Part shown: positions 9,555 through 33,386 of the stretch, piece after piece
Layout of the letters: each line of letters begins with the position of its first letter
How positions within the stretch are numbered: the first letter of the stretch is position 1
Virus record (IMG/VR): IMGVR_UViG_3300025133_000063
Location: 1-64,000 of that record
Source: a virus
DNA: 64,000 nt
Strand: one strand, 5' to 3'
Position numbers and translations under genes: made by a program
Notes under the pieces: model-generated
Told to the model about the DNA's origin: nothing
Database searches by the model: none
What the model saw: only the letters and a program-made list of their open reading frames with translations

Positions 9555-9564
9555 ATTATTCACA

Positions 9565-14167: not shown

Positions 14168-14172
14168 TTTAA

Positions 14173-14967
14173 GTGCTTAATTTTTTTTGCTTATCGAATA
14201 AAATAGAAGATAATATTTATGCTGCAGCAATTACTTCTGCAATTGCTAAAAAAGGTTTTAAGTGTACTCTTTTTGTTCGTGAAATTCCATATTTTGCTGA
14301 AAGATATGACAATATTAAAATAACGGCAGATTTACCAAAGGCTTTGTTACGAACTCGAAGATCAATTCATGATGATGTAGTTTATGATCGATATGATGAA
14401 AATAAACAATACATAAATGTGTGGTTAAATCAACTTCATGGTTCATTTATTTACGAGTCTATTAATAAAACTTTGTTATCTATTACAAAACATATAATAA
14501 GTACGTTAGGTATTAGGAAACGAATAACGATAGGTAATATACTATCTTCATCTTCGTCAAAATATATTGACGTTAAAACAAAACATCAAGCAACAGGCTT
14601 AATAAAGGTTTGTATACCACCCCAGACAATTACTAAACTTGAAAACGAGATTTCTATTTCGCTATCACAAATTTTTAGTGGATGCTCTAGAACCACATTT
14701 TATATTTTTGACGATAATCAAAAGTACAGATCGGGTAATTGTAAATCATTTACAGAAATAAACACCCTTATTAGTGCTATGATAGAGTCCGATGTTATAA
14801 TACTTTCTTCACCAGCATTTATTTTGCCATATACTAATATTATTAAGAAGCAAAAATTATTGTTTTTATCAAATATAGATAAGAATAGTAAAATAAAAAA
14901 CAAGACTGTTTTTTTGCCCAATCCAACATCAAACGATGTTATTAGATATTTGAGAACGCTATACTAA
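14173..14967 (+). CDS. Hypothetical protein
   Basis: Very AT-rich 264-aa ORF filling the intergenic gap. No motif recognised. Confidence 0.5.
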   Translation: MLNFFCLSNKIEDNIYAAAITSAIAKKGFKCTLFVREIPYFAERYDNIKITADLPKALLRTRRSIHDDVVYDRYDENKQYINVWLNQLHGSFIYESINKTLLSITKHIISTLGIRKRITIGNILSSSSSKYIDVKTKHQATGLIKVCIPPQTITKLENEISISLSQIFSGCSRTTFYIFDDNQKYRSGNCKSFTEINTLISAMIESDVIILSSPAFILPYTNIIKKQKLLFLSNIDKNSKIKNKTVFLPNPTSNDVIRYLRTLY

Positions 14968-15005
14968 ATTTTACTCTTGTTATATTTAAAAACAAGGGTT
15001 AATAT

Positions 15006-15599
15006 ATGTTATATGCTATTTTATTTGCTGCGTTCCTCACCGGCTGTTGTCCATCTGCTGTAAAAAATGTTGACACAAACACAAGTGATAATTCTGGTTT
15101 AACACTAGAATTTGATAGCTGTTCTCAAAATATAGGTGATAATCCATGTGATTTCTCGCTTGTCAATCAGCACGGTACAACAATTAATTTGTATGATTTT
15201 TATGAAGAAATTATTATAGTTGATTTAAGCGTAATGTGGTGCGCGCCATGTCAACAAATGGCACAATCCGCGGACAGAATTGTTTTAGAGTATGGCGATG
15301 AGAATGTTGAATGGTTGACATTATTAATTGAAGATAATAGTGGTAATCCTCCAGATCAAGAAGATACAACATTATGGGCAACACAAAATAATATTACAGG
15401 TCATGTATTGGCAAGTGATAGAAGTATAATTGATAACACTCCCGAATTAATTACAGGTTATCCAGTTACCGGTTGGCCGACATTTGTTGTTATAGATGAT
15501 GAAATGGTTTTACGGTATGGTGTAACAGGGTGGAGTGAGGAAGTGCTTAAGCAAATGCTTGATGTACTTGTGTTGGAGAAACAAAGTAGAGATGGATAA
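15006..15599 (+). CDS. TlpA/redoxin-like thioredoxin, probable lipoprotein
   Basis: WCAPC active site, 'GWPT' cis-Pro loop, and a hydrophobic N-terminus with lipobox-like 'LTGC'. Confidence 0.8.
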   Translation: MLYAILFAAFLTGCCPSAVKNVDTNTSDNSGLTLEFDSCSQNIGDNPCDFSLVNQHGTTINLYDFYEEIIIVDLSVMWCAPCQQMAQSADRIVLEYGDENVEWLTLLIEDNSGNPPDQEDTTLWATQNNITGHVLASDRSIIDNTPELITGYPVTGWPTFVVIDDEMVLRYGVTGWSEEVLKQMLDVLVLEKQSRDG

Positions 15600-16494
15600 A
15601 GTATTTTATAATAAGGCATCCGCTGATTCTCTCGGCTGGACACCTCAGTGGTTTAATTCTAGCCATCATGATGATCTACTCGTTTCAGCAATTAAAAAAT
15701 GGCAAAAGAAAAATGGATTAAAAGATGATGGTCTTTGTGGACCGACAACATATAGAAGAATATGGACTGAACGTGAGGCGGATATTGGAAATTTTATTAA
15801 TAAGTGTCCACCAGAAAAAGAGCAGTCATTTATTATCTGTAATTCGAAGCCTATTGTTATTAATTGGCCAAGAGTTGTTTTGTGGGATGAGCCAAATGGT
15901 CTTAAGGCTAAGGCGAACACACATTATAACAATGCCGGGAAAGAACCTCGTGATGTAAGCATGTTTGTAAATCATTGGGACGTATGTTTAAGCTCCGAAT
16001 CTTGTGCAAAAGTGTTAAACAATAAAGGAATATCGGTTCATTTTTGTATTGATAATGATGGAACAATATATCAGATGCTTGATACTCAACACGGTGCATG
16101 GCATGCCGGTGTATCCAAGGTAAATAAAAAATCAGTTGGTGTTGAAATTTCAAATGCCTATTATACCAAATATCAGGATTGGTATGTTAAAAATGGTTTT
16201 GGTGAAAGACCATTAATCGAAGATGCCAAAGTTAACGGTAGAACACTTAAGCCATTTTTAGGTTTTTATGATATTCAACTTCAAGCGTTAAAAGAATTAT
16301 GGCGTGCATGTGCATTAGCTTATGATATTCCACTATCTACACTTGAATCATCATCAACTAATTTTAAAACTTCTACTACAACAGAGTCAAAAGCAAAAGA
16401 TGGTTCATTTAGTGGATTTGTTAGTCATTATCACGTTAGTAAAAGGAAAATTGATTGTGCTGGTTTAGATATTGCAAAATTACTTAATGAATAA
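15592..16494 (+). CDS. N-acetylmuramoyl-L-alanine amidase with PG-binding domain (endolysin)
   Basis: 'AIKKWQKKNGLKDDGLCGPTT' (PG_binding_1-like), 'VNHWD', 'SVHF.ID.DG', 'AWHAG', 'SVGVE', 'SHYH...KIDC'. Start re-assigned to ATG 15592. Confidence 0.88.
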   Translation: MDKVFYNKASADSLGWTPQWFNSSHHDDLLVSAIKKWQKKNGLKDDGLCGPTTYRRIWTEREADIGNFINKCPPEKEQSFIICNSKPIVINWPRVVLWDEPNGLKAKANTHYNNAGKEPRDVSMFVNHWDVCLSSESCAKVLNNKGISVHFCIDNDGTIYQMLDTQHGAWHAGVSKVNKKSVGVEISNAYYTKYQDWYVKNGFGERPLIEDAKVNGRTLKPFLGFYDIQLQALKELWRACALAYDIPLSTLESSSTNFKTSTTTESKAKDGSFSGFVSHYHVSKRKIDCAGLDIAKLLNE

Positions 16495-17766: not shown

Positions 17767-18552
17767 ATACTTGAAGGTCCACAATATCGACATATAGCGC
17801 ATAAACTAGCTAAAATTGTCTCTGGTAAAACGCTTGTATCAATTGATATACTGTCAGGTCGTTATAAAAAAAATGAATTAAGCGGACTGAAGAGGTTACG
17901 ATCGGATTTACCGTTAACTATAGCCGGTGCCGGCGTTCATGGTAGATTTATATACATAATATGTGATAATGAATTTGTGATTTGGAATACACTTGGTACA
18001 GCAGGTACATGGGTTACAGAAAAAACAGATACCTCGCGTTGTAAATTTACGTTTTCAGACAATTCAAGTTTATTTTTTACAGATTCAAGAAATTTTGGCA
18101 CATTAAAAATTGTTACTGGGCGCCATCAGACAATTGAAAAATTACAATCTTTAGGTATGGATTTACTTGCTAATGATCCAGGTGCTGGTTTGTTTTTAAC
18201 ACGTATTAGAAAGAAAAATTCTAGCAATATCTGTAAAGTACTAACAGATCAAAAAATAATTGCCGGAATTGGAAATTGTATAAAATCAGAAGTGTTGTGG
18301 CATGCAAAAATATATCCTTTTGCGATGGTTTCTGATTTATCTGATGCAGATATTGCTGAACTTTATAAAAGTATACGCGAAATCATGCATATAGGTTTTG
18401 AAACTAAAAATCAAAAAAATGATTACTTAGACAGTCTTTTTGTTTATAATAAGCAAGTGGATAAAACAGGAAATAATGTTATAAAAGGTATGACGCCTGA
18501 CAACAAAAACACCTATTGGGTTGAAAAGAAACAAATTCGAGGAAAAAAATGA
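17767..18552 (+). pseudogene. Degenerate Fpg/Nei DNA glycosylase
   Basis: The frame is open from 17767: ATA CTT GAA GGT CCA (I-L-E-G-P) stands where MPEGP is expected. 'F.D.RNFG' and 'DQKIIAGIGN' (H2TH) are retained. It may be an expressed but inactive CDS. Confidence 0.65.
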
Positions 18553-19580: not shown

Positions 19581-19773
19581 ATTTATAGATGACTGCTATG
19601 TATATAAATACGACAAAAATCCTCAACGGCCCTTATTTTTAAAACCACTTAAAATTTCTTCTGGTAATGTTGGCTTAATTATTTCGGAAACATCTCATGA
19701 CGTTATGTTTTTGCTAGGCAATGTTTTATTATTTGTTAACAAGCAAGACTCATGTCATGCGTATGTAGCTTAA
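19570..19773 (+). CDS. Small hypothetical protein
   Basis: 67-aa ORF overlapping the upstream stop. Confidence 0.45.
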   Translation: MLIEFIDDCYVYKYDKNPQRPLFLKPLKISSGNVGLIISETSHDVMFLLGNVLLFVNKQDSCHAYVA

Positions 19774-20459
19774 CATTCTTTCATTTCACCTGGAAAACCT
19801 TGACTGACCTTATATGTTATAATATTTGGTCCACCTTTATATTCGTCACACAGTTGATGAATGGCTTCAACATTTAAATCATTGTCGTCATAAAAATATA
19901 CTGTTTTCGGATTTAGCGCGTCGATATATCGCCGAACAATTCTTGCTTTAGCAGCAGGATCACTATCACCAACAGGAAAAACTTGGCTTCCATCTATTTT
20001 GGCACCCGCAGATTTTAAAAAATCCGATATGTCATCCCTATTTGTTGGTGTAACTTTTCCAAAAGGCGATGTAAATTCACTATTACCTCTAGCGGTTACA
20101 ACAATTACTCGTGTGTTTTTAGTACTTTCGGCCTGTTTTAGAATTTTAATAATTTCTGGATTTTCTTTCGACGTCGATTGATTTACACCAGATGTATCTG
20201 AAAAGTCAAAATACTCAACTGTCTCATCACTTATTTCATCTGACGCAAATTTTTGGTATTTTGCGAAATCTTCCGACGTTAGATAATAATAAATTAAGTC
20301 ATCTGCTTTTTCTTCACTTACTGGAAATAAATCATGCTCAATTAGCCACTGTCGAAACAAAGTATCGTTTTGGTCTTTATGTGTTCTAGCTACACCAATT
20401 GTTGCAATTGTTTCAGCCAATGTATCGTCGAAATCAAAGACGAATAAGTAATCAGTCAT
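19770..20459 (-). CDS. HAD-superfamily hydrolase
   Basis: 'FDFDDTL', 'VVTAR', 'K', 'FYDD...N'. It is the only convincing minus-strand gene, with AAGGTG RBS and ATATTTA upstream on the minus strand. Confidence 0.85.
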   Translation of the reverse strand: MTDYLFVFDFDDTLAETIATIGVARTHKDQNDTLFRQWLIEHDLFPVSEEKADDLIYYYLTSEDFAKYQKFASDEISDETVEYFDFSDTSGVNQSTSKENPEIIKILKQAESTKNTRVIVVTARGNSEFTSPFGKVTPTNRDDISDFLKSAGAKIDGSQVFPVGDSDPAAKARIVRRYIDALNPKTVYFYDDNDLNVEAIHQLCDEYKGGPNIITYKVSQGFPGEMKEC

Positions 20460-20504: not shown

Positions 20505-20879
20505 ATGGATAACAAATTAGAAAATATGTTTATAACTCGTGAAGCTTTTATGCGAGCTATTTGTGATAAATACCCAAGCAGCTACCCTGATTGGCCTGTT
20601 GATGTAACAAAAAAGAGAAGCCAGAAGGCTCTGCGTGAAACTGCGCTAAAGGGCGTTGAAGAAATGTTTGAGGCATTACAGGAACTTAAAAACTGGAAAA
20701 CGCATAAAAAGAAAGGTTCATCAGATTTTAATCGCGATGATTTTTTAGAAGAGATGGTTGATGCGTTTAATTATTTTTTTGCGATGTTTATTATGCTTGG
20801 TGTAACACCTGACGAATTGTATGATGCTTATATGAATAAAAATAAGAAAATTCATTCAAGACTTATTGACGGTTATTAG
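20505..20879 (+). CDS. MazG-like all-alpha NTP pyrophosphatase (dUTPase/dCTPase)
   Basis: 'EEMFEA..ELKNWK', 'EEMVDAFNYF', 'Y..KNK..H.R...GY'. Confidence 0.8.
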   Translation: MDNKLENMFITREAFMRAICDKYPSSYPDWPVDVTKKRSQKALRETALKGVEEMFEALQELKNWKTHKKKGSSDFNRDDFLEEMVDAFNYFFAMFIMLGVTPDELYDAYMNKNKKIHSRLIDGY

Positions 20880-20890
20880 TAGATAAATTG

Positions 20891-20918
20891 TGAAAATACG
20901 TCATATACATGATATAAT
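20891..20918 (+). promoter_or_regulatory. TGAA-N18-TATAAT promoter of the dnaE operon
   Basis: TGAA at 20891 and TATAAT at 20913. Confidence 0.7.
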
Positions 20919-20955
20919 ATAAACATTGATAAACATAGTAGCTTAAAGGATATTC

Positions 20956-23900
20956 ATGGATATTAAGCCAGTCAAATTTGTAGGTCTTCATTCTCATTCG
21001 GGTTTTTCTACTTTCGATGGAATGGATCTACCTCAAAAGCATATTGATTTTGTTCGTTCAAATGGTATGAATGCCTGGGCGTTAACAGATCATGGTAACA
21101 TGAATGGTTATTGTCATGCGTACTTACATATGCAAAAAATTAATGCAGAAGATCCAGAGAATCAATTTAAGTTTATTCCTGGTTGTGAAATGTATGTTCA
21201 TCCAGATCTTGATGTTTGGAAACTTGATTACGAAATTCAACGTGCTATCAAGGCAAATGACGAAGAAAAACGCTTGCAATTAGTTTCTCAACGAGCCGAG
21301 ATTGCTGGTCCAGTTTTCGAAATTCAACGTGAGCATAAACAAGAACATGAAGTAAATGATGAAGATGCTTCAATGACTGTTGAAAATGAAGATGAAACAA
21401 AGTCATCAAAATTTTATAATCCGATTAAGCGCCGTCATCATATGGTTGTTTTACCCAAGACATCTGTCGGTCTTAAGAGACTTTTTGGACTTGTTTCAAA
21501 AGGCTATCTTGAAGGCTTTTATCGTTTTCCTCGTGTAGATTATAAAATGATAAAGGAAGCTGCCAAAGGTGGTCATATTATTGTGACATCTGCTTGTATT
21601 GGCGGCCCGTTGGCATATGAAATATTTAAACACTTTCAAGGTGTTGAATTTGAAGATTTAAAACCAGAGCTTTTAGATGATAGCGACGTTTTTAAGCGGG
21701 TGCTTCATAGTGTTGGTCTTGGATATTCTGCAATAGCAAATACTGTTGGTGAGGAAAATTTTTATCTTGAGCTACAATTTAATAAGTTAAACGCACAACA
21801 CTTAGTCAACCGCGTTCTTTTGGCATTTGCTGAACAGGAGGGTTTACAGAGTAAGCTAATTGTTACTACTGATTCTCATTATTCTCAACCAGAATTATGG
21901 CGTGAAAGAGAATTATATAAGAAGCTTGGGTGGCTAAATTATAAGGACTTTGATCCGGATAAATTGCCAAAATCAAAAGATGAACTTAAGTGTGAATTGT
22001 TTCCAAAAAATGCACAACAAGTTTGGAATACTTATCTTGACACAAAACAAACCCGATCTTTTTATAATGATCAAATTATTTGTGATGCAATTGAAAGAAC
22101 ATATGATATTGCACATGATGTAATTCAAGATATTAGGCCAGACACAACGATGAAGTTGCCATCGTATGTTTGTCCAGAGGGTAAAACAGACAATCAGGCG
22201 TTATTGGAATTATGCGTTAAAGGTCTTCATAGAAAAGGTTTGCTTAAAGATAAAGAATATGTCGATCGCCTAAAGTATGAATTAAAGGTAATTGCTGATA
22301 AGGATTTTTCTCGTTATTTCTTGACAATGTTTGCAGTTGTAGAAGTGGCTCGAAGAAAGATGACTGTTGGGGCCGGCCGTGGATCTGCTGCCGGTTCATT
22401 AGTTGCGTTTGTTCTTCGATTAACAAATATTGATCCACTAAAGTATGATTTAATGTTTGAGCGGTTTTTGAATCCGTCACGTAAAGGAGCACCAGATATC
22501 GATACTGACATTGCTGATCGTGATCTTCTGATAACAATGCTTAAAGAAGAATTTGGCGACTTAAATGTTATTCCAATTTCCAACTATAATACATTTAAAT
22601 TGAAGAGCTTGGTTAAAGATGTATCTCGTTTTTATGGAATCGACTACTCTGAGGTTAACGCTTCGTTAAAGACAGTTGAGAATGATGTTAAACGAAAGGT
22701 TATGAATCGAGGGCAAGATAAAAACCTGTTTGTACTAAAGTATTCTGACGCTATAAAACATAGTCCAACATTCAAAAAGTTTATCGATAAATATCCAGAT
22801 GTTGGTCAATCTATTGAAGGTTTGTTTCAGCAAAATAAAGCTCTTGGTAGACATGCTGGTGGTGTTATTGTCGCGGAAGATATTCCGGAACAAATGCCTG
22901 TTATTATGGCCCGTGGCGAGCCACAGACTCCTTGGGTCGAAGGTATGCAATATAAACATCTTGAAAGCTTTGGGTGGATCAAGCTTGATCTACTTGGTCT
23001 TGAGACACTCCGATTAATTGAACGAACTGCTGAATTGATCCTCAGGCGTCATCATGGAATTGAAAACCCGACATTTCCAGAAATTAGAGACTGGATTGAA
23101 GAAAATTTAGATCCAAGTATTCTTGATCTTGACGATCAAAAAGTATACAAGTATGTTTATGAAGACGGTCACTTTGCTGGTGTGTTTCAATTAACTTCTG
23201 GCGGTGCACAAAAATTGTTTAAAAAAGCAAAACCAAAGAGCATTATTGATATTGCAACATTGACATCAATTTATAGACCAGGTCCTTTAAGTGCAAAAGT
23301 TGATAAATTGTACGTTGAGGCAAAAAATAATCCTGAAGATATCGACTATGGTCATCCGCTAATAGAAAGCGTGTTAAAAGAAACATATGGTCTAATAGTA
23401 TTTCAGGAATCTATTATGAAATTATGCAGTGTTGTAGGTGGTTTTCCAGAAAAGGAAACCGATTCAATACGTCGTAATATTATGAAAAGAACCGGTGCAA
23501 AACAAGCCGAGACTTTGGCCGCGGCCGTCGCTGCTAAGAAAAGTTTCGTTGCTGGTGCCATGAAAAATGGTGTTGATAGACAATTGGCTGATGATCTTTA
23601 TGAAAAGGTCTTGTTCTTCTCTGGTTATGGCTTTAATAAGAGCCATGCGGTGTCATATGCCGTTGATTCATATCAATGTGCATGGTTACATACCTATTAT
23701 GAAGAAGAGTGGCTCTGCGCCTATCTTGAAGCTATGTCAAGTAATGATAAGAAGCGTGCCCGGGCTTTTGCCGACGTTAAAAAAATGGGATATACAATTG
23801 TTCCCTTAGACATAAATTACGCTGAGAAAACGTGGACAATTTTGCCAGGTAAAAAGTTTATGCCTTCGTTTTTATCGTGTAAAGGAATTGGTGAAGCCGC

Positions 23901-24615
23901 TATTGATGAGCTAATTAAAATTAGAAAAACAGCAGGAGCACCATTTAACACTATACAAGATATGCTTTGGAATGAAGATGGTGAATGGAGATTTTCAAAG
24001 TTTAATAAACGAGCTATAGAGGGATTAATATCTATTAAGGCATTTGCTTCGATGGACGTAGTTGGGCAAGATAAAACTTTTGCATCATACAAGCATATGC
24101 ATAATGTCTTGGTTGAAAATAATACACTCATTAAACGCCGCTTAAAGTCAAAGCCAAAAATTGGTCAACAAAATTTTCAAGAGTTATGTCAAGCAAAAAT
24201 GCTTATTGACGATGCCGATTCTATAACCCAACACGAATGGGACGAATGGACTCCTCGCGAAGTTGCTGAGCGTAGTGTTAAGTGTCTCGGATCATTTTCT
24301 GCACAACAACTACTTGATAGTAGTGAAATTGAATTTTTGGAAAAATCAGGTTATACACCTCTAGATGAAGTAAAAAAGAAAAGTAAATACTGGTTTATTG
24401 TTTGTGATACCGTGCCTAAGCTTACAAAGAATGGAAAACCTTATCTTATCGTCACGGCTACAGGCCTTTCCGGAGCTCGTCATCGAATGTTTTGCTGGGG
24501 TTGGAATGGTAGACAAAAAATAGAACCATATTCATTATGTGTTTCAAAGGTTGGTCCAAGTGATTTTGGGCTACAAACCTCAATGCGCGATTTTGAAAAT
24601 TTAAGTGAACAATAG
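20956..24615 (+). CDS. dnaE: DNA polymerase III alpha subunit
   Basis: PHP 'LHSHS.FS..DG', 'ALTDHG', 'TDSHY'; 'GRGSAAGS', 'PDIDTD', 'KLDLLGL', 'YGFNKSHA'. Confidence 0.95.
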   Translation: MDIKPVKFVGLHSHSGFSTFDGMDLPQKHIDFVRSNGMNAWALTDHGNMNGYCHAYLHMQKINAEDPENQFKFIPGCEMYVHPDLDVWKLDYEIQRAIKANDEEKRLQLVSQRAEIAGPVFEIQREHKQEHEVNDEDASMTVENEDETKSSKFYNPIKRRHHMVVLPKTSVGLKRLFGLVSKGYLEGFYRFPRVDYKMIKEAAKGGHIIVTSACIGGPLAYEIFKHFQGVEFEDLKPELLDDSDVFKRVLHSVGLGYSAIANTVGEENFYLELQFNKLNAQHLVNRVLLAFAEQEGLQSKLIVTTDSHYSQPELWRERELYKKLGWLNYKDFDPDKLPKSKDELKCELFPKNAQQVWNTYLDTKQTRSFYNDQIICDAIERTYDIAHDVIQDIRPDTTMKLPSYVCPEGKTDNQALLELCVKGLHRKGLLKDKEYVDRLKYELKVIADKDFSRYFLTMFAVVEVARRKMTVGAGRGSAAGSLVAFVLRLTNIDPLKYDLMFERFLNPSRKGAPDIDTDIADRDLLITMLKEEFGDLNVIPISNYNTFKLKSLVKDVSRFYGIDYSEVNASLKTVENDVKRKVMNRGQDKNLFVLKYSDAIKHSPTFKKFIDKYPDVGQSIEGLFQQNKALGRHAGGVIVAEDIPEQMPVIMARGEPQTPWVEGMQYKHLESFGWIKLDLLGLETLRLIERTAELILRRHHGIENPTFPEIRDWIEENLDPSILDLDDQKVYKYVYEDGHFAGVFQLTSGGAQKLFKKAKPKSIIDIATLTSIYRPGPLSAKVDKLYVEAKNNPEDIDYGHPLIESVLKETYGLIVFQESIMKLCSVVGGFPEKETDSIRRNIMKRTGAKQAETLAAAVAAKKSFVAGAMKNGVDRQLADDLYEKVLFFSGYGFNKSHAVSYAVDSYQCAWLHTYYEEEWLCAYLEAMSSNDKKRARAFADVKKMGYTIVPLDINYAEKTWTILPGKKFMPSFLSCKGIGEAAIDELIKIRKTAGAPFNTIQDMLWNEDGEWRFSKFNKRAIEGLISIKAFASMDVVGQDKTFASYKHMHNVLVENNTLIKRRLKSKPKIGQQNFQELCQAKMLIDDADSITQHEWDEWTPREVAERSVKCLGSFSAQQLLDSSEIEFLEKSGYTPLDEVKKKSKYWFIVCDTVPKLTKNGKPYLIVTATGLSGARHRMFCWGWNGRQKIEPYSLCVSKVGPSDFGLQTSMRDFENLSEQ

Positions 24616-24627
24616 GAAAAGTATTAA

Positions 24628-25656
24628 ATGCATATTGGAACATTTACAGATTTTACGACTTGTTACTTGTCGTTAATTAAAAGTGTATATAACAACCCAC
24701 AATATATTTCAGCACCTCGTGGTCAAAAAATTAAAGAGGTGTTAGGTGCAACGTTTACAATTAGTGATGCAAGACAACGGTTACCATATGTTGTTGGTAG
24801 AAAATTTTCATTAACGTATTTAATTGCTGAATTAACATGGTATCTATCAGGTAATGATAAAACTGAATGGATATCGAAATACTCATCATTTTGGAAAAGC
24901 ATATCTGATGATGGTGTAACAGCAAATTCAGCATATGGTGCAAGACTATTTCAGCCCCATGATTCAATTGCAGAATCAAGGTTTACACAATGGGATTATG
25001 TTGTTGAAGAATTGCGCAAGGATCCTGATTCACGAAGAGCAATTATGCATCTTAGGGTACCAGCAGATAGTATTGATGCCAGATTAGACGTACCTTGTAC
25101 GTTAGCGCTTCAATTTTTTATTCGTGATAATAAATTACATCAAATTGCAACAATGCGCAGTTCGGACGTTATTTTTGGTATAGCGTATGACGTTCCAGCA
25201 TTTACAATGTTTCAAGAGATACTGGCTGCCGAAGTTGGGGTCGACGTTGGTAGTTATACACACGTAAGCAATTCGCTTCATATCTATGAACGTCATTTTG
25301 ATATGGCTGCCAGAATATTAAAGAGAGAGAATGTTGAAAGTTCAATGGCTTGGTCATATCGTCATTTACCCAATAAGGGTTTACGTTGTATGACAAATGC
25401 TACAAATTCTTTAAGTGGTTTACGAAATACAATTATTAATGATTTAATTGAATTTGAGACAATAATAACTAGTGAGATTAATTGTGACAAAATATTAGAG
25501 GCCACATACAATTTCCAGGCCCCAGGTTTTTGGAGGGATTATGCAATTATATTTGCGGCTAAAAGACTTAAAGAACTTAATTTACCAACACAATATAAGA
25601 ATTTAATGAAAAATTTAAGTAATAGTGATTATGATTTTTATGTAAGGAGACTTTAA
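24628..25656 (+). CDS. Thymidylate-synthase-fold enzyme, probable dCMP hydroxymethylase or other dCMP C5-modifying enzyme
   Basis: 'DSRRA', 'PCT', 'MRSSD..FG.AYD', 'SLHIYERH'. Asp occupies the position of the dUMP-specifying Asn. Confidence 0.75.
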   Translation: MHIGTFTDFTTCYLSLIKSVYNNPQYISAPRGQKIKEVLGATFTISDARQRLPYVVGRKFSLTYLIAELTWYLSGNDKTEWISKYSSFWKSISDDGVTANSAYGARLFQPHDSIAESRFTQWDYVVEELRKDPDSRRAIMHLRVPADSIDARLDVPCTLALQFFIRDNKLHQIATMRSSDVIFGIAYDVPAFTMFQEILAAEVGVDVGSYTHVSNSLHIYERHFDMAARILKRENVESSMAWSYRHLPNKGLRCMTNATNSLSGLRNTIINDLIEFETIITSEINCDKILEATYNFQAPGFWRDYAIIFAAKRLKELNLPTQYKNLMKNLSNSDYDFYVRRL

Positions 25657-26162
25657 TGCAAAATTTAATTATTTGGGAAGGTTGTGACGGCTGTGGCAAA
25701 ACCAATATAGCAGCAGCTGTTTCTGAAAAATTGGGTATTCCGGTTTACAAAAGTGGGCTTGAAGATCAAATGTTTTACGACAAGGATTCGCAATATTTGG
25801 TTCTTAAGCACGGGAATTATGAAATGATTAAATTACTTGATGTGGCAAACTCAAATATAATGTTTGATAGGTTCTTCCCTTCAGAATGGGTTTATTCACA
25901 GGTTTTTAATCGTCAACAGGGACTAGACATAGTTTTAGCCCTTGACGAATATTGGTCACGATTAGGTGGAAAAATTATTTGGCTTGATAAACCAAATATT
26001 GAAGAAAGTGATGAACTAGTTCCTAAAAGCAAATATAATGAAATACGTCAGAAATATAAAGAATATATGAATTTAACAAAATGTGACGTATTATATCTTG
26101 ATACAACTGATCGTAACTTAGAAAAGCAAGTTAATTTAATTAGCAAATTTATTATGGAGTAA
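25656..26162 (+). CDS. dNMP kinase (thymidylate-kinase-like)
   Basis: P-loop 'EGCDGCGKT' and 'FDRF..SE'. Confidence 0.85.
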   Translation: MQNLIIWEGCDGCGKTNIAAAVSEKLGIPVYKSGLEDQMFYDKDSQYLVLKHGNYEMIKLLDVANSNIMFDRFFPSEWVYSQVFNRQQGLDIVLALDEYWSRLGGKIIWLDKPNIEESDELVPKSKYNEIRQKYKEYMNLTKCDVLYLDTTDRNLEKQVNLISKFIME

Positions 26163-26165
26163 AAA

Positions 26166-27308
26166 ATGAATAGAATTTATTATTATGGTGTCGGTTCACT
26201 ACACAACAACGAGAGTTCCGTCGACGGCGGAAAGCACATTCGGTTACCTTTGGTTGAGGCGTTTAAGAAAAATGGTTTCGATGTTACATGGCTTGGGTTT
26301 GAAACTTCTGGTAATGTAAAAAACCACTATCTTGATCTTATCGGTCTTTATGCAGATGATTTTAATCATGATGTACGAGATCAAGTTGACAATCATTCAA
26401 GTCAATTTATGAATAGCGAAAAGACAGGTATTACAGACAGCGCTAAAAATCATATTAAAAATAACCCCGGAGTACTATTGGTTGAATTACGACCAAAACT
26501 TGATAAGCCAGGTTATAATTTTATGAACGAATACAATGTACAAATGGAATACGTGTATGAATTTCTAAATAATAATCTTCCAGTATTTATTTGGGATCAA
26601 GATGGCTGGTGTGATATGCTTCCAGACGACATTAAAGATGACGTTGTACTACTGAAGCCTTATACGGAGATGCTTGATTCAAGCTTTCCAAAGCAAGAAG
26701 ATTTTTTGTTTGGTTGGTTTAAACCACAATTTGATAATAAGTTAGCAACATTGGCAAAAAACAAAAAGTTTGATGTTGGCTATTGTGGTAATGTTTATGG
26801 CCGTCGTGATGATTTTTATGAATATTTTGGCCGTTTTGCAAAGACAGATAGAGCCGTAAATATTCAAGGGAATTGGCTTCGCAAGAAGTATGGTGATAGA
26901 GACTTTTCGTTAGATAATTTTCCAAACTTCATGTTTTTTGGTAGAACACCACACTGGTCAACACTACCAACTATTGCAATGAGTAAATCTGTTTTTCATT
27001 TTTCAAATCCACACCAGCAAAATATTGGTATGCCAACCGCTCGAGTCTTTGAGGCACTGATGGGTAAATCAACGTTGTTTTGTTCATCAAAGATTAAAAA
27101 TATTGATAGGTTTGTACCAGAAGAATTAATTGTCGAAACCGGTGATGAATTGTTTGAAAAATGGAATGCTATTGAATGCGATGGAAATTGGGAGCACTAT
27201 CGACAATTATTCGTTGATAAGCTAGCTGTTTATGAACATACATATGATTATAGGGCAAAGCAGTTTATCTCATATATTAATAAATATTTTGGTGGTAGAC
27301 AACAATGA
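26166..27308 (+). CDS. GT-B glycosyltransferase, T4 beta-glucosyltransferase/CgeB-like
   Basis: C-terminal 'YCGN..GR', 'IQGNW', 'FFGRTP', 'PTARVFEAL', 'HTY..RA'. Confidence 0.7.
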   Translation: MNRIYYYGVGSLHNNESSVDGGKHIRLPLVEAFKKNGFDVTWLGFETSGNVKNHYLDLIGLYADDFNHDVRDQVDNHSSQFMNSEKTGITDSAKNHIKNNPGVLLVELRPKLDKPGYNFMNEYNVQMEYVYEFLNNNLPVFIWDQDGWCDMLPDDIKDDVVLLKPYTEMLDSSFPKQEDFLFGWFKPQFDNKLATLAKNKKFDVGYCGNVYGRRDDFYEYFGRFAKTDRAVNIQGNWLRKKYGDRDFSLDNFPNFMFFGRTPHWSTLPTIAMSKSVFHFSNPHQQNIGMPTARVFEALMGKSTLFCSSKIKNIDRFVPEELIVETGDELFEKWNAIECDGNWEHYRQLFVDKLAVYEHTYDYRAKQFISYINKYFGGRQQ

Positions 27309-28309
27309 TTGCTGCGCCAACAATACCTCAGCGTGTATTAGTTACAGGTTGCTGTGGTTTCATCGGCGCGCATGTAGTAACAGCCCTTCTTGATAAAGGG
27401 TATATTGTTGATGGCATTGATAATATGTCAACAGCAAATTATGACTTTTTTGTTACAGAGCATACTAAAAGGTCAATTAGGGTGTTACCTACTGAGATGG
27501 GTTTTATTTGGGAAACCACGGCTGAGGAGCATGATAAATCTGATATTATTGTATTTGAAGGTGATTTTGTAGATCCATTTATTTTAAGGCGTATTATAAG
27601 CGATAAGTACGATGCCGTAATTCACTTGGCTGCCGAACCTCGAATAGAATATTCAATTAAATATCCAGTTAGTACTTACGAAAATAATTGTCAAAAGACA
27701 ACAGAGCTATTTCATGTTTGTGCAAATACAAACACAAGGGTTGTGTTTGCCTCCTCTGCTGCGGTCTATGGTAATACACCAACACCGTCGTTAGAGGCAG
27801 GCCTGTTAAAACCAGCATCACCTTATGCCATTCAGAAAAAACATTCTGAAGAGATTGGATTACTTTTTTCCGATTTATATGATTTACAGTTTGTAGCACT
27901 TAGGTTTTTTAACGTATATGGTCGTGGACAACTTGGTAATTCTTCATATTCGACAGTTATTGCTTCATGGCTTGATAAGCTAAAAAATAAATCTCCTCTG
28001 CGATTAGATGGTGATGGAGAACAAACAAGGGATTATATTAATGTACTAGATGTAGCACAAGCTTGTCTGACTGCAGTACAATATGAGAAATCAGACATAT
28101 TTAATATTGCATCTGGTGTATCAATATCAAACAATGACGTGCTTAATATATTGGCAACATATGTTGATATTGTTACTAAAAATGCACCGCCACGAATAGG
28201 TGATATTAAACATAGTCTTGCCAACATAGAAAAAGCCAATAAATGTCTTAAATTTAATTCACGAATAGATATTAATGCTGGTTTAAAAGAGCTAATATTA
28301 GCAAAATAG
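27305..28309 (+). CDS. NAD-dependent nucleotide-sugar epimerase/dehydratase
   Basis: 'TGCCGFIG', 'HLAA', 'SSAAVYG', 'PYAIQK' (YxxxK), 'RFFNVYG', 'GDGEQTRDY'. Confidence 0.92.
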   Translation: MIAAPTIPQRVLVTGCCGFIGAHVVTALLDKGYIVDGIDNMSTANYDFFVTEHTKRSIRVLPTEMGFIWETTAEEHDKSDIIVFEGDFVDPFILRRIISDKYDAVIHLAAEPRIEYSIKYPVSTYENNCQKTTELFHVCANTNTRVVFASSAAVYGNTPTPSLEAGLLKPASPYAIQKKHSEEIGLLFSDLYDLQFVALRFFNVYGRGQLGNSSYSTVIASWLDKLKNKSPLRLDGDGEQTRDYINVLDVAQACLTAVQYEKSDIFNIASGVSISNNDVLNILATYVDIVTKNAPPRIGDIKHSLANIEKANKCLKFNSRIDINAGLKELILAK

Positions 28310-28317
28310 GAATTTAA

Positions 28318-28707
28318 ATGGGTGATGGGTATAAAACGGTTTGGAGTACTACCTCAGACAATGTAACTAAAGACTGGGGTTCTGAAACCACAATAGGAAC
28401 ATTAAATACCATTAGGGCTAAAGTAATTTATATTGATTCTGGAAAGCAAACATCGCTGAAGTATTATACGAATAAAGATGAAATACTTTTTGTTCGAACC
28501 GGTAAAATTCTTGTTGAATTTGATTCTGAAAAATATCATTTTCAAGATAGATCTAAGCAATTAAAGACAACAACATTAGTTGCAGGTGATGTTTTATATG
28601 TTCAATCAATGTGCCCATATAGAATCAGCGCAGTAGAATATTCCGAAATTATTGAAATAGGCTCTGGTGGAAATTCTGAGGCAATAAGGATTACAAGGGA
28701 ATTTTAA
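28318..28707 (+). CDS. Cupin-fold protein with degenerate metal site
   Basis: 'K.WG.E', 'SLKYY..KDE', 'L..GD', 'PYRISA', 'IIEI'. Confidence 0.65.
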   Translation: MGDGYKTVWSTTSDNVTKDWGSETTIGTLNTIRAKVIYIDSGKQTSLKYYTNKDEILFVRTGKILVEFDSEKYHFQDRSKQLKTTTLVAGDVLYVQSMCPYRISAVEYSEIIEIGSGGNSEAIRITREF

Positions 28708-29696
28708 TGGGAAGACCTAATCCGAATGAAGTCGAAATAGTTTTATATCATGCAAACTGTAGTGATGGCTTCGGCGCAGCCTGGGCTGCATGGAAACTTC
28801 TTGGCTCAAAGGCAAAATATATTGCATGTAAGCATGGTACCTCACCACCAGATGTAACTGGAAAAAATGTAGCAATATGTGATTTTAGTTTTGATAATGT
28901 AACAACAAAACAAATGATTGAAGATGCAAACTCGCTTGTTATACTTGATCATCATAAATCTGCAGTTGTAGAATTGCATGATATATCAGAAGCTATATTC
29001 GACATGAATCATTCAGGTGCTGTAATTACTTGGAAATTTTTCCACCCTGGAAAAGAACCTCCAAGACTTTTGAATCTAATTGAAGATCGAGATCTTTGGA
29101 AATGGAAGATCTCTTATTCAAAAGAGTTTAGTGCGTATTTCGACATGGTTCCGTTTGAATTCGAAGAGTTTTCAAAATTTGAAGATGAATCAGTAATAGA
29201 AGCTGCAATGAAACAGGGCGCAATTATTTTGGCCTATTCTAAGACGGTTGTCAAAAAAATCGCAGATAAAGCAAAAAAGAGAGTGTTTAAAGGCAAAAAC
29301 GCGTATGTTGTAAACTCATCTCACTGGATGTCTGAAATCGGCTCACGACTTGCACCTGATTGCGATGTAGCCGTTATATGGTATTATGATCACGAGCAGC
29401 GAAATATTAAGGTAAGCCTAAGGGCTCATCATGACAATATAGACGTTTCAGAATTTGCAAAAGAATTTGGCGGTGGTGGCCATCCTAAGGCTGCTGGTTT
29501 TACTTTACCTGGTGATACTGTTGTCGATGATTTATTTGATGTTGTAGAAGAAAAAGTAGACACATCTGCCGCAAAAGAAGAACTTGAAAAGATTAAGGCA
29601 CAACTCGAAGAAGCTGGAGATGTCGAAAAAGCCGCAGCTATTGAAGCGGCAACTGTACTGCTGACAGGCGTATCAACCACTGATAAAGAAGATTAA
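28707..29696 (+). CDS. DHH/DHHA1 phosphoesterase
   Basis: 'YHANCSDG', 'LDHH', 'DRDLW', 'SLR', 'GGGGHPKAAG'. Confidence 0.9.
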   Translation: MGRPNPNEVEIVLYHANCSDGFGAAWAAWKLLGSKAKYIACKHGTSPPDVTGKNVAICDFSFDNVTTKQMIEDANSLVILDHHKSAVVELHDISEAIFDMNHSGAVITWKFFHPGKEPPRLLNLIEDRDLWKWKISYSKEFSAYFDMVPFEFEEFSKFEDESVIEAAMKQGAIILAYSKTVVKKIADKAKKRVFKGKNAYVVNSSHWMSEIGSRLAPDCDVAVIWYYDHEQRNIKVSLRAHHDNIDVSEFAKEFGGGGHPKAAGFTLPGDTVVDDLFDVVEEKVDTSAAKEELEKIKAQLEEAGDVEKAAAIEAATVLLTGVSTTDKED

Positions 29697-29714
29697 TTGT
29701 AAGAAAGATATAAA

Positions 29715-30164
29715 ATGTTGGACCTAAATAATATCACTGACCGTGAACGACAAAAAATAAATGTTTTTAAGAATGTTTGCGTTGAAATATCAACATTGTC
29801 ACATGATCCAAAACTTAAAGTTGGTACAATTATTATTACCGATGATTTTAGAGATGTCTGCGCAATTGGGTTGAACGGAAATTATACCGGCGGCCCAAAT
29901 TCTCGTGATTCTAATGAGGTAGGAATGTCTGGTTTTTTACATTCTGAGGAAAATGCTCTTTTTCACTTAAGCAAGCCATATGAGCTTCGTGATAATTTAA
30001 TAATGATTTGCACACATAAGCCATGCCCAATGTGTGCAAAAAGAATAGTAAATTCAGGTATAAAACGAATACTATATATAAATGAATATAACGCTCTTGG
30101 AACAGCAACCGATATTATATTCAAGCACAGCAACGTTTTTTGTTCAAGTATACACGATATCTGA
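29715..30164 (+). CDS. dCMP deaminase
   Basis: 'KVG', 'HSEENAL', 'PCPMC'. Confidence 0.9.
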   Translation: MLDLNNITDRERQKINVFKNVCVEISTLSHDPKLKVGTIIITDDFRDVCAIGLNGNYTGGPNSRDSNEVGMSGFLHSEENALFHLSKPYELRDNLIMICTHKPCPMCAKRIVNSGIKRILYINEYNALGTATDIIFKHSNVFCSSIHDI

Positions 30165-30227: not shown

Positions 30228-32321
30228 ATGATGTCAAACAAGTCTGCCCTTTTATTATATGAAGGACTGTTGGAAATATACGAACTTGCTTACGAAGCAA
30301 AAGCTGAAAAACCAATGTTGTATGAAGGTGTTGGATATTCACCTTTGCAAATTGTATTACAAGAAGCAGGTGCCGAAGCGAAAAGTAAAGGTAAGAAGAA
30401 AAAAGGTAAAGGTGGAAATTTTCTAGCTAGAACAACTGCAGCAGTAAAAAAAATAACTGCCGCCGGAGAGGCGGGTGTAAAAGAGCTTACTACTTTACGT
30501 GATAGTCTTCAAGCTACAGATCCACCAATGATAAATTCAGTTACTGCAGCAACTAAGGCAATAGACAAATTAAAAAAATCAATGCCTGGCTCTGGTTTTC
30601 TTGGAAAAATTTCTACATTAGGTTCTGCAATTTTTGGTAATGAAGATGATCCAATTGAGGCAATAACTGAAATTGTTGCAGATTCTGCAGCGTTCCAAAC
30701 AATGATATCAAATATAGTTAAGGCAGTGTTGGAAAAGCTGGACGAAATTAAACCAGAAGAGATTGTTGAGCAAGAAGCTGAAGATAACGAAGATGCTGCT
30801 CCAATTGATGATTCTCAAAAAAATGAATATATTAAACAAATAAAAGAAAAAATGCTTTCTGGAACCATTAATGATATATTAAGTTCTGATGATGAAATGT
30901 ATGTGGCAGTTAGGGAAGCAACAGGTTTTAATAGCGGCATAATTAAAAAGGCAATTAAGACATCTGCGAAACCAGCAAAATGGTTTTCAGGTTTAAAGAG
31001 CCTTGGAGGTGCCTTAGGTATTGGCCTTGGCGGCGATTTACCATTTAAGAAATTTGGATTAAAGATCGGAGGCTTGGAGCAAGATATTATACTTGTAAAA
31101 ATATCATCACTACGTGAATTAGCAGGTGGAGTAAAACCAGATAAAAAAGATGCAGCAGTAATAAAAACAACGACTGCTGCAATTGGTGATCTGGCTGATA
31201 TTAAGAACGATCAGCAAAACCAGCCAGAGGCACAGCCTGATGAAGGTACTACAACTCCTGGTTCTACTAGTGAAGACCCATCCGGAGATGTAGCCGACGA
31301 GCCCACCCCGGAGCAAGCAGAGGACAAAAGTAAGTACCTTAAAATTGTTAAGACCGTTCCAGGCCTTAATGATCCTGAAGGTGCTGCTACTAAATTGGCA
31401 TCGCTTCTAGCCGCTGATATTTCATTTTCTAGGGTGTCACTTCTTGATATATTGTCTGAGAAGGTATTGAGATATGACGACGTTGTTGCATCGATGAAAG
31501 ATCATTTACCAGAAAATGAAACAGAAATTCCAGCAGTTGTAAAGAAGCTTGCTGATGAAGTAAAAGTCGAGCTTGGTGCTGATTTTGATATAGTTGGAAT
31601 ACCGTCTGCATCGGAACAGCTTGAAAAATTACGTGCAGAGTTAGCTGCTTTACGTGATGAAATAAAATCTGCACCTGAAGATGATAGAGAAGCACTTGAA
31701 ACAGAGTTATCTTCTAGGCTTGAAGACGACGGGTTAGATTCAGCTGTTGCTGAAGACTTAGTTGATGTTAATACAGATCTTGATTCTGCCATTGAAGATT
31801 CAACAGCCGGTCTAGATGTTGAAGAGGAAGAGGACAAATTAGCACAAATGATAGATTTTATTCAGAAATTAAAATCATCATACGACAAAATCTATTCTGA
31901 CACAATTGAAGATACACCTGCAGTAGAAGATGAAGGCGAAGAATCTAAGGCTACAAAAACTACTAGAGAACCAGGCTCATATTGGAAAGTATCAGATGAA
32001 GCTTTGGCAAAGGATAGTAAAAAACGTCCATGGGCAGCAAAGGGTAAAGGGCCAAAGTCAAAGAAGCAACAGCGGTTTAAGAGTGAAGAATCTGCAAAAA
32101 AATACTCCCTTAAGACAGAGCGGATTGTACTTGCAAATATGCGTGCTTATATTTTAAATGAAACAAACAATTTTAGAAAAGTATCAAATATGCCTCCACG
32201 TGAAGTTATTGTTGAATATTATAGACTTGGTGGAACAAACAACAGAATAAAACAAGTGCTGACTGAATCTTCATTTGATTCTTCACGCTTAAGTCTTCTT
32301 GCTGGAATTACAAATGAATAA
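30228..32321 (+). CDS. Large acidic hypothetical protein, probably virion or prohead-associated
   Basis: 697 aa, E/D-rich, with many L/I-x-E sites and a C-terminal 'RLSLLAGI'. Confidence 0.6.
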   Translation: MMSNKSALLLYEGLLEIYELAYEAKAEKPMLYEGVGYSPLQIVLQEAGAEAKSKGKKKKGKGGNFLARTTAAVKKITAAGEAGVKELTTLRDSLQATDPPMINSVTAATKAIDKLKKSMPGSGFLGKISTLGSAIFGNEDDPIEAITEIVADSAAFQTMISNIVKAVLEKLDEIKPEEIVEQEAEDNEDAAPIDDSQKNEYIKQIKEKMLSGTINDILSSDDEMYVAVREATGFNSGIIKKAIKTSAKPAKWFSGLKSLGGALGIGLGGDLPFKKFGLKIGGLEQDIILVKISSLRELAGGVKPDKKDAAVIKTTTAAIGDLADIKNDQQNQPEAQPDEGTTTPGSTSEDPSGDVADEPTPEQAEDKSKYLKIVKTVPGLNDPEGAATKLASLLAADISFSRVSLLDILSEKVLRYDDVVASMKDHLPENETEIPAVVKKLADEVKVELGADFDIVGIPSASEQLEKLRAELAALRDEIKSAPEDDREALETELSSRLEDDGLDSAVAEDLVDVNTDLDSAIEDSTAGLDVEEEEDKLAQMIDFIQKLKSSYDKIYSDTIEDTPAVEDEGEESKATKTTREPGSYWKVSDEALAKDSKKRPWAAKGKGPKSKKQQRFKSEESAKKYSLKTERIVLANMRAYILNETNNFRKVSNMPPREVIVEYYRLGGTNNRIKQVLTESSFDSSRLSLLAGITNE

Positions 32322-32703
32322 AATTTTATCTGAACAATTACGCAAAGAATATGTTTCAAAATTACTTGAAGCCCTTAAAGAAGTTGACATTCTTGATAAA
32401 GAAGGAAACATTTTAATATCAAAAGATCTAAAGGTTTTTCATAAAAAGTCTGGATATGAATATACAGTTCATGATGTTGTTAATACACCAGAAGGTATTA
32501 AGGTTATGTTGCGGCTACCAGATTCACCACGTCCTATCCAGGGCAAAGCAACAAGACCGTTGGATGAAATATCCACCGATAACTTAGAAGTCCCAGAAAC
32601 AACTCATAATGATACTAATCCTTCAGCACTTTCTGATTTGGTCGATGATGACATATTTATTGTTGATGAAGAATTATTTGAAAAGGAATACGAGGTAAAA
32701 TGA
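32314..32703 (+). CDS. Hypothetical protein
   Basis: Start re-assigned to ATG 32314. N-terminus 'EQLRKEYVSKLLEALKE'. Confidence 0.65.
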   Translation: MNKILSEQLRKEYVSKLLEALKEVDILDKEGNILISKDLKVFHKKSGYEYTVHDVVNTPEGIKVMLRLPDSPRPIQGKATRPLDEISTDNLEVPETTHNDTNPSALSDLVDDDIFIVDEELFEKEYEVK

Positions 32704-33386
32704 AAATCACAGAAAAAGATATCGTTTCTGGAATTATTAACGATTTAAAAATAGATAAATTACGTAAAGTAAATGAAGCGTATGTAGTATCATCACAGAA
32801 ATTTGATTATAATGTTGATATTGTAGGTGATAAGACAAAGCTTGCACATCAAAAGTTACTTAACGATTACGTTGATTCACTAAATAAAATTGCCGCTGAA
32901 CTTGATACTGTAAATAGAGATGATGCAAATTCCACGAATTCTATTTATCGTTCATTTAAAATTGATGAAGTATATAATTTAAATGCTGCTTTTCTTCATG
33001 GAATGTTTTTTGAAAATATTACTGAAAGTTCGACTATTACAGTCGACTCTCTGGCATTTTTACGCTTAGAACGTGATTTTGGAAGTTTTGATAGCTGGCA
33101 AAAAGATTTTATAGCCACGGCTCAATCCGCTAGAAGCGGTTGGGCTGTTACTGTTTACAATACATTTTTGCGAAGATATATTAATGTTGTTGTTGATTCA
33201 CACGCAAATAATGTTCCATTTAGTTCTTATCCAGTTATAGTAATTGATATGTGGGAGCATGCATATTTTGATGATTATCTTAATGATAAAAAGAAATATA
33301 TATATGCAGTAATGAAACAGCTTGATTGGCAAAAAATCAATGAAAGATTTCAACGTGCCGAAGATATTGCCGAGGTTTTTAAATGA
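32700..33386 (+). CDS. Fe/Mn superoxide dismutase with N-terminal extension
   Basis: 'H' (LAHQKL), 'LHGMFF', 'DFGSFD.W', 'SGW', 'DMWEHAY'. Confidence 0.88.
   Translation: MKITEKDIVSGIINDLKIDKLRKVNEAYVVSSQKFDYNVDIVGDKTKLAHQKLLNDYVDSLNKIAAELDTVNRDDANSTNSIYRSFKIDEVYNLNAAFLHGMFFENITESSTITVDSLAFLRLERDFGSFDSWQKDFIATAQSARSGWAVTVYNTFLRRYINVVVDSHANNVPFSSYPVIVIDMWEHAYFDDYLNDKKKYIYAVMKQLDWQKINERFQRAEDIAEVFK

Follow-up and report, generated by a model that had tools for sequence, protein, structure and literature searches.

A candidate T4-style pathway for glycosylated 5-hydroxymethylcytosine beside a DnaE-type polymerase gene in an uncultured marine phage

Genes at the locus

Glycosylated 5-hydroxymethylcytosine (hmC), best known from the T-even coliphages, is the classic means by which phages protect their DNA from restriction and CRISPR nucleases. 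Here we describe a gene block (positions 20,505 to 30,164) which probably encodes a T4-style pathway of this kind, in which cytosine would be replaced by hmC and a sugar then added to the DNA. The block lies in a 64,000-nucleotide window, namely the first 64 kb of the 80,404-bp IMG/VR virus record IMGVR_UViG_3300025133_000063, which is classed as linear. Read along the plus strand, it consists of genes for a gp56-like pyrophosphatase, a DnaE-type polymerase, a thymidylate synthase (TS)-fold enzyme, a thymidylate-kinase-like kinase, a GT-B glycosyltransferase, a nucleotide-sugar 4-epimerase, a small cupin, a DHH/DHHA1 phosphoesterase and a dCMP deaminase (Table 1). The open reading frames agree exactly with the gene boundaries drawn in an initial annotation made from the sequence, which had overlooked the phosphoesterase gene inside the block. 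That annotation had proposed a glycosylated hmC pathway, and the proposal is now supported in silico by the substrate and product determinants of the TS homologue, the gp56-like character of the pyrophosphatase, the homology of the transferase to T4 beta-glucosyltransferase (BGT), and the presence of a 4-epimerase.

The thymidylate synthase-fold enzyme

The TS homologue is most likely a dCMP 5-hydroxymethylase, judging by its nearest solved relatives and its active-site residues. In a PDB search the closest structures were those of the CMP 5-hydroxymethylase MilA (5jnh and 5b6d, E 8e-46), and ordinary thymidylate synthases and gp42 followed at about 1e-17 to 1e-24 (2.6e-17 for T4 gp42). The enzyme also has the length of MilA, 342 aa, including a C-terminal extension of about 100 aa. 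It contains the motif MRSSDVIFGIAYD; the initial annotation had picked out the pattern RSSD..FG.AYD.

Residues were compared in an alignment with E. coli ThyA, T4 gp42, RB69 gp48 and SPO1 gp29, whose sequences came from annotated records. The catalytic cysteine is in place (Cys157, corresponding to E. coli C146). Asp188 falls on E. coli N177, as the initial annotation had claimed, and is the residue found in gp42; Asn is retained at this position by SPO1 gp29 and by the Molly and Kuttervirus enzymes. Asp154 corresponds to E. coli L143 and Asp180 to D169, a column in which RB69 gp48 has Asn, and Ser178 and Arg136 correspond to S167 and R126. In published work on this fold, N177D goes with dCMP as substrate, an acidic residue at 143 with a product other than methyl, and D169N with the flavin-dependent 5-hydroxy-dCMP synthases, every assayed D169N variant having yielded 5-hydroxy-dC (PMC13326640). 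Ala and Lys at the Ser167 and Arg126 positions confer a preference for ribonucleotides, and the double change A176S/K133R turns MilA into an enzyme acting on dCMP (PMC5175136). The window enzyme thus carries the gp42 pattern on a MilA-like scaffold, which reads as cytosine, hydroxymethyl and deoxyribose, and it lacks the Asn at the D169 position that marks the 5-hydroxy-dCMP synthases of the RB69 gp48 type. With all three sets of determinants found, the earlier dCMP-type reading of this enzyme stands. The pattern is identical in 120 of 120 homologues with at least 50% identity, many of them on contigs of 100-290 kb. It recurs unchanged in a homologue with 38% identity that belongs to a more distant relative.

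The best match to this enzyme among phage records was Bacillus phage G gp319, a TS homologue of the D177/D143 type with 35% identity. In phage G (228758-234494) gp319 is found near gp317, a dCMP deaminase, and gp313, which is annotated as an alpha glucosyl transferase.

The glycosyltransferase

Conventional searches retrieved little for the transferase. A single-sequence PDB search found no relative, and tblastn against 50,697 phage records gave no match, nor did the profile of its own clade (A1) show any likeness to either half of the RB69 arabinosyltransferase. A collection of 5.8 billion proteins held 46 homologues at E <=1e-3, all of them metagenomic, and a clade profile search of 1.84 billion representative proteins returned 292 matches at E 1e-3 and 27 at 1e-30, which describes a small family. 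The sole glycosyltransferase family matched was PF13524, by 23 of the 48 proteins of the wider family.

An AlphaFold (AF2) model built on 34 homologues has a predicted local distance difference test score (pLDDT) of 94 and shows a GT-B fold with two Rossmann domains. Scored with VIA, the model resembled GT4 enzymes at Z 25.2 to 22, T4 BGT (1c3j) at Z 21.6 over 301 residues with a root-mean-square deviation of 3.8, and T4 alpha-glucosyltransferase at 21.2. Foldseek and VIA therefore establish the GT-B fold and do not separate DNA transferases from others.

The clearest indication of ancestry came from a profile of the wider family (A6, 48 members). When this was run against the whole PDB, T4 BGT, a DNA glucosyltransferase, was the sole significant match (1nzd and 1bgt, E 4e-14 and 1e-13), the next entry following at 0.025, and hhalign gave 96% to T4 BGT and 97% to a Maribacter phage Molly protein annotated as "beta glucosyl transferase". 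The match to BGT spans the C-terminal, nucleotide-binding half. Within it, BGT Arg195, Arg269 and Glu272, which we take to be the UDP-binding residues, correspond to R213, R293 and E296, which 46, 47 and 43 of the 48 family proteins, respectively, have conserved. The likeness to T4 BGT noted in the initial annotation is thereby borne out as a distant homology. The motif parallels on which it had been based hold in part, and weakly at the level of the clade profile: YCGN, IQGN and TARVFEAL are present and align to BGT segments, and FFGRTP, though present, lies opposite a gap. We conclude from these profile comparisons that the transferase is a distant member of the BGT lineage, belonging to a small GT-B family without a name, and a good candidate for a DNA transferase; we do not assign it to the curated T4 BGT family.

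Epimerase and cupin

The gene overlapping the end of the transferase gene by 4 nt encodes a nucleotide-sugar epimerase, as initially annotated, of the WbpP/WbgU-like 4-epimerase kind. Its nearest PDB entries are UDP-GlcNAc/GalNAc 4-epimerases (6dnt, 6wjb, WbgU and WbpP), and its segments ASSAAVYG and YAIQK, which supply the Ser and the YxxxK, align to the catalytic segments of 6dnt, 6wjb and WbgU in matches at E 1e-43 to 2e-34. The GalE equivalog cut-off was not reached (154.7 against 262.3 bits), so that the substrate of this nucleotide-sugar 4-epimerase is not narrowed further. The enzyme is a candidate maker of the donor sugar. Since the product of a 4-epimerase would be a 4-epimer, such as a galacto-configured hexose, N-acetylhexosamine or hexuronate donor, rather than a glucose donor, the sugar on the DNA would probably not be glucose.

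For the cupin, a single-sequence PDB search gave no match, and the usual His metal ligands and HxH motif are absent in its alignment (A3). The AF2 model resembles generic cupins, with the C-terminal domain of CapF among the top matches; CapF is a capsule enzyme of SDR-cupin architecture, and this domain is its cupin. A role as a sugar-nucleotide isomerase or epimerase is possible.

Nucleotide enzymes and polymerases

The small pyrophosphatase at the head of the block (124 aa) had been called MazG-like. That label can be sharpened to gp56-like, because its family profile matches the T4 gp56 dCTPase/dUTPase in hhalign at 95% (E 3.9e-8, 36% identity). The alignment covers the C-terminal 70 residues, with the N-terminal half outside it, and ends on the same Gly-Tyr; a single-sequence PDB search gave no match. 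By this family relationship the protein is a candidate dCTPase that would clear dCTP from the pool. Its gene is kept upstream of the DnaE gene even in the distant clade of relatives described below.

The kinase gene appears to be translationally coupled to the TS gene, as the initial annotation had noticed: the stop codon of the TS gene and the start codon of the kinase gene share TAATG, just downstream of an AAGGAG. The product shares 26% identity (pairwise E 5e-4) with RB69p045, a thymidylate-kinase-like kinase whose gene neighbours those for the TS homologue and the first transferase in RB69, DLP3 and RL38J1 (PMC13326640). The kinase and transferase genes are separated by 3 bases. At the other end of the block, the expected dCMP deaminase is confirmed by its Pfam and PHROG matches.

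The DnaE protein has the PHP, polymerase core, finger and HhH domains in order, all above cut-offs (PF07733 E 1e-56, PF17657, PF02811 and PF14579). Its gene ends 12 nt before the TS gene, which makes it plausible that this family C polymerase incorporates hm-dCTP. The initial annotation had named a family C rather than a family B enzyme as the polymerase concerned. The adjacency of DnaE stands; its exclusivity does not, given that the window also encodes a 403-aa protein with a family A polymerase domain, in which no exonuclease domain was detected and which would be a second phage polymerase besides DnaE.

Gene neighbourhood

The window has a G+C content of about 35%, and nearly all of its genes lie on the plus strand. 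The region around the block is a replication and nucleotide module with genes for a gp32-like protein, a UvsX-like recombinase, an exonuclease, DnaB, ribonucleotide reductase and a 5'-3' exonuclease.

Table 1. Positions of the block genes and of other features in the 64,000-nucleotide window
Feature	Position	Strand	Support
Family A polymerase domain protein, 403 aa	3158-4369	+	PF00476 E 1.7e-20, profile positions 87-356 of 381
ClpP-like protease	13565-14167	+	
Fpg/Nei-type H2TH DNA glycosylase domain protein	17977-18552	+	PF06831 E 3e-15
HAD-superfamily hydrolase	19770-20459	-	PF12710/PF00702 just under cut-off
gp56-like all-alpha NTP pyrophosphatase, candidate dCTPase	20505-20879	+	PF08761 E 1e-5; phrog_12184 E 4e-14
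DnaE-type (family C) polymerase alpha subunit	20956-24615	+	Pfam domains; phrog_405 E 2e-230
TS-fold candidate dCMP 5-hydroxymethylase (MilA/gp42 type)	24628-25656	+	PF00303 E 8.5e-36
Thymidylate-kinase-like P-loop kinase, candidate hm-dCMP kinase	25656-26162	+	phrog_761 E 2.5e-15; under Pfam cut-offs
GT-B glycosyltransferase, candidate hmC-DNA glycosyltransferase	26166-27308	+	PF13524, marginal
NAD-dependent nucleotide-sugar 4-epimerase, WbpP/WbgU/GalE-like	27305-28309	+	PF01370 E 1.8e-50
Small cupin	28318-28707	+	weak PF00190; phrog_7851
DHH/DHHA1 phosphoesterase, RecJ/NrnA-like	28707-29696	+	PF02272 E 3e-12; phrog_4771 E 9e-82
dCMP deaminase, analogous to T4 cd	29715-30164	+	PF00383 E 3.6e-14; phrog_174 E 3e-26
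697-aa protein	30228-32321	+	
Fe/Mn superoxide dismutase	32700-33386	+	
GroEL-like chaperonin	43169-44749	+	phrog_5725 E 1e-136

Immediately upstream of the block and divergent from it lies the gene for a HAD-superfamily hydrolase, found in the same place in relatives with 51-63% identity. It may be a phosphatase with nucleotide or sugar substrates; compared with the HAD protein RB69 gp51, it showed no similarity. The Fpg/Nei-type H2TH protein gene farther upstream is likewise kept in relatives (43-51% identity). Directly after the deaminase gene comes that of the 697-aa protein, which is present in all close relatives at 39-73% identity; Pfam, PHROG, NCBIfam and atlas searches found no match for it, and its atlas model is poor. 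The window also encodes a superoxide dismutase, a chaperonin and a ClpP-like protease (Table 1).

Searches of the full 80 kb found no other GT2 or GT4 transferase, no ThyX, no second TS and no DHFR; because the record is only a fragment, the lack of ThyX, second TS and DHFR genes shows little. CheckV puts its completeness at 27%, which, together with close relatives on contigs of 202 and 269 kb, indicates that the virus is probably a 'jumbo' phage with a genome of 200-300 kb.

Relatives in other metagenomes

Near-identical DNA is present in at least 5 further marine metagenome studies. Megablast of the block against the 50,697 phage records gave no match, and a scan of viral contigs yielded no confirmed relative. 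A single metagenome scan provided 26 related loci, which fall into two clades.

The close clade, with transferases 74-92% identical to that of the window, includes the 202- and 269-kb contigs. Where contigs are long enough, the order HAD hydrolase, pyrophosphatase, DnaE, TS homologue, kinase, transferase, epimerase, cupin, DHH phosphoesterase and deaminase is kept, together with four more genes. The phosphoesterase gene is syntenic in this clade only.

In the distant clade, to which some groundwater loci belong, the transferases are 52-55% identical. The pyrophosphatase and DnaE genes are again upstream where contigs are long enough, and the kinase gene stands shortly upstream of the transferase gene in every locus with an upstream flank. 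The WbpP-like epimerase, the cupin and the phosphoesterase are absent. In three loci the transferase gene is instead flanked by GDP-mannose 4,6-dehydratase-like and GDP-fucose-synthase-like genes, a setting that hints at a 6-deoxyhexose donor. The steady pairing of kinase and transferase alongside changing sugar genes points to a transferase working in nucleotide or DNA chemistry, with its donor supplied by the neighbouring genes. We regard this pairing as the best genomic argument for a nucleotide or DNA role of the transferase. If sister clades indeed swap in donors of the GDP-fucose type, one transferase family would write different sugars onto DNA.

Several features of the distant-clade loci may be recorded here. 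The GDP-mannose 4,6-dehydratase-like and GDP-L-fucose-synthase-like genes (L016:775-2687; L021:9092-10000 and 11106-12125) both score under the equivalog cut-offs. Genes of the isocitrate-lyase family, for a truncated release-factor-like protein (PCRF/RF-1) and of the IMPDH/GMP-reductase family surround the kinase-transferase pair in two loci (L023:7230-8516, 9322-9990 and 13856-15019; L021:7242-8516 and 15294-16454). A 327-335-aa protein is encoded downstream of the transferase in three (L023:11142-12146, L018:11145-12152 and L016:4795-5778), next to it in L018 and L023 and one gene further on in L016. Its N-terminus is weakly kinase-like (23-26% identity), and searches for a P-loop, a family match or a likeness to TS were all negative.

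Proposed pathway and alternative explanations

Taken as a pathway, the block would work as follows. The gp56-like pyrophosphatase would convert dCTP to dCMP and so deplete the canonical precursor, with the DHH phosphoesterase possibly contributing deoxynucleoside monophosphates from degraded nucleic acid. From dCMP, methylene-tetrahydrofolate and water, the TS-fold enzyme would form 5-hydroxymethyl-dCMP, which the coupled thymidylate-kinase-like kinase would phosphorylate, and a host nucleoside diphosphate kinase would complete hm-dCTP. A phage polymerase, most likely the adjacent DnaE, would incorporate this nucleotide, although a family A domain is also encoded. Like T4 cd, the dCMP deaminase would channel some of the dCMP into dUMP for thymidylate synthesis. 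After replication, the BGT-like GT-B enzyme would move a sugar from a UDP-sugar to the hydroxymethyl group in the DNA, the donor being made by the overlapping 4-epimerase with a possible contribution from the cupin. The expected gain would be resistance to host restriction and CRISPR nucleases.

A number of points weigh against this reading. The sequence is known only from assembled marine metagenome contigs, and with so incomplete a record, the rest of the genome may contain a canonical TS, more transferases or other modifying enzymes. The TS homologue shares just 27% identity with gp42 and is not its orthologue; a maximum-likelihood phylogeny with the reference enzymes, the test that the initial annotation had suggested, placed it firmly in a marine clade, and the deep branches are long and not resolved, so that no donor or sister group was shown. 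A TS homologue lies within 10 kb of the transferase in just one distant-clade locus. The narrow clade profile A1 reaches only 7% against T4 BGT in hhalign, so that the link to BGT rests on remote family members, and no Pfam model of T4 beta-glucosyltransferase matches any of the 48 family proteins at E 0.01. BGT Asp100, named as catalytic (10.1101/2023.12.21.572611), pairs with Glu107 (37 of 48 members) solely in a low-confidence extended alignment. In structure the transferase scores highest against GT4 enzymes with small-molecule or lipid substrates (Z 25, against 21.6 for BGT), and the protein is acidic, with an isoelectric point of 5.8 against 9.05 for T4 BGT.

These last two properties would fit a phage that makes hmC DNA and uses its transferase, epimerase and cupin to glycosylate another target, for instance virion proteins or a glycan of the host surface. 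Some of the top GT4 matches act on polysaccharides, the GDP-fucose-type genes beside the distant orthologue are typical of glycan pathways, and glycosylation of phage virions is known (cited in PMC12619734). Against this, confirmed DNA arabinosyltransferases retrieve the same generic GT4 hits, among them BshA, PimA and sucrose-phosphate synthase (PMC13326640), and by profile the sole significant solved relative is a DNA transferase, T4 BGT. The transferase gene moreover sits between a nucleotide kinase gene and an epimerase gene in a replication module, adjoined by the kinase in both clades. We consider a non-DNA target unlikely.

The DNA base would differ from hmC if the TS homologue formed some other C5 product, for instance 5-methyl-dCMP or 5-hydroxy-dCMP. 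Unexpected chemistry has recently been shown for this fold, in the form of flavin-dependent 5-hydroxylation (PMC13326640), and the distance from gp42 and the uncharacterised C-terminal extension leave room for it. The residues speak otherwise: position 143 is Asp and not the methyl-linked Leu, and position 169 is Asp, in contrast to the Asn of every 5-hydroxy-dCMP synthase tested. MilA, a hydroxymethylase and the nearest characterised enzyme, likewise has a long C-terminal part. A different C5 product therefore seems to us quite improbable. It is also conceivable that these are ordinary nucleotide-salvage or auxiliary metabolic genes lying side by side, in a phage with canonical or partly modified DNA. 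Shared ancestry can explain the synteny of the close clade, which may thus reflect common descent only. An enzyme with Asp177 and Asp143, however, would be unable to supply thymidylate, six parts of the block match six T4 functions (dCTPase, hydroxymethylase, kinase, deaminase, transferase and polymerase neighbourhood), and the genes overlap or are tightly spaced, which makes chance neighbourhood very improbable.

The T4-style pathway accordingly remains the reading that we favour. A more specific proposal, which we offer tentatively and hold to be less likely than not, is that the DNA of this abundant marine giant-phage lineage would contain hmC bearing a galacto-configured sugar (a hexose, N-acetylhexosamine or hexuronate), possibly altered further by the cupin and installed by a branch of the BGT family. 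This would be a base not yet described, made in a lineage whose sister clades would swap donors and whose DnaE-type replicase would have to accept hm-dCTP.

If the pathway operates as proposed, the logic of T4 reappears with different parts in a marine lineage that is uncultured and whose genomes measure about 200-300 kb. It would bring a new DNA sugar and a new family of DNA glycosyltransferases, of possible use in hmC labelling, and a natural test of how a family C polymerase handles hm-dCTP. The DNA of ocean viruses may then carry more modification than sequence surveys assume.

Comparison with known systems

In T4, glucosyl-hmC is produced by the gp56 dCTPase, the gp42 hydroxymethylase, the gp1 kinase, the cd deaminase and the alpha- and beta-glucosyltransferases, and the DNA is replicated by a family B polymerase. 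The window block offers the same set of functions, with a gp56-like pyrophosphatase, the gp42 determinant pattern, a BGT homologue and a dCMP deaminase. It differs in that the predicted hydroxymethylase is MilA-like and only distantly related to gp42, the kinase is thymidylate-kinase-like and not gp1-like, and a single transferase of a separate family takes the place of two. The block also has its own 4-epimerase and cupin, implying a non-glucose sugar, the polymerase beside it is DnaE, and the phage belongs to a marine, uncultured lineage.

Phages RB69, DLP3, HY126 and RL38J1 likewise combine a TS homologue, a base-proximal GT-B transferase and a thymidylate-kinase-like kinase with donor-sugar genes (PMC13326640). 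In these glycosyl-5-hydroxycytosine systems, however, the TS homologues have Asn169 and yield 5-hydroxy-dCMP, whereas the window enzyme has Asp; the window transferase bears no detectable likeness to the RB69 arabinosyltransferase; and an arabinose-5-phosphate pathway stands where the window has an epimerase. With MilA of Streptomyces rimofaciens, its nearest relative among characterised enzymes, the TS homologue of the window shares Asp at 143 and 177. MilA has Ala176 and Lys133 and prefers ribonucleotides, in contrast to the Ser and Arg of the window enzyme, the combination that turns MilA towards dCMP.

The cultured marine Maribacter phage Molly_1 (MT732451, 69968-74727) also has a BGT-like transferase beside sugar-nucleotide enzymes and a long TS homologue, its cluster comprising a UDP-glucose dehydrogenase-like protein, an SDR, the 'beta glucosyl transferase' and the TS homologue. 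The sugar enzymes differ from those of the window, the transferase is 473 aa long, and the TS homologue has Asn177, the uracil type, which suggests glycosylated hydroxymethyluracil rather than cytosine.

Pyle et al. found that several phage DNA transferases modify 5hmC only with a partner epimerase, giving hexose (Hex), N-acetylhexosamine (HexNAc) or hexuronate (HexA) adducts, and their database mining turned up numerous GT-B genes with links to TS homologues, polymerases and epimerases (10.1101/2023.12.21.572611). The pairing of a phage DNA transferase with a donor-supplying sugar epimerase is common to their clusters and the window, and the architecture of the window thus belongs to a published kind. 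The clusters that they tested form 5hmC after replication, by a methyltransferase and a TET-like dioxygenase, whereas the window phage would form it before replication. Glycosyl-hmC, epimerase-coupled DNA transferases and TS-linked GT-B clusters being already known, the concept is unchanged by our findings; what is new is the uncultured marine lineage, a transferase family that forms a branch of BGT without a name, and a probable non-glucose sugar with an associated cupin.

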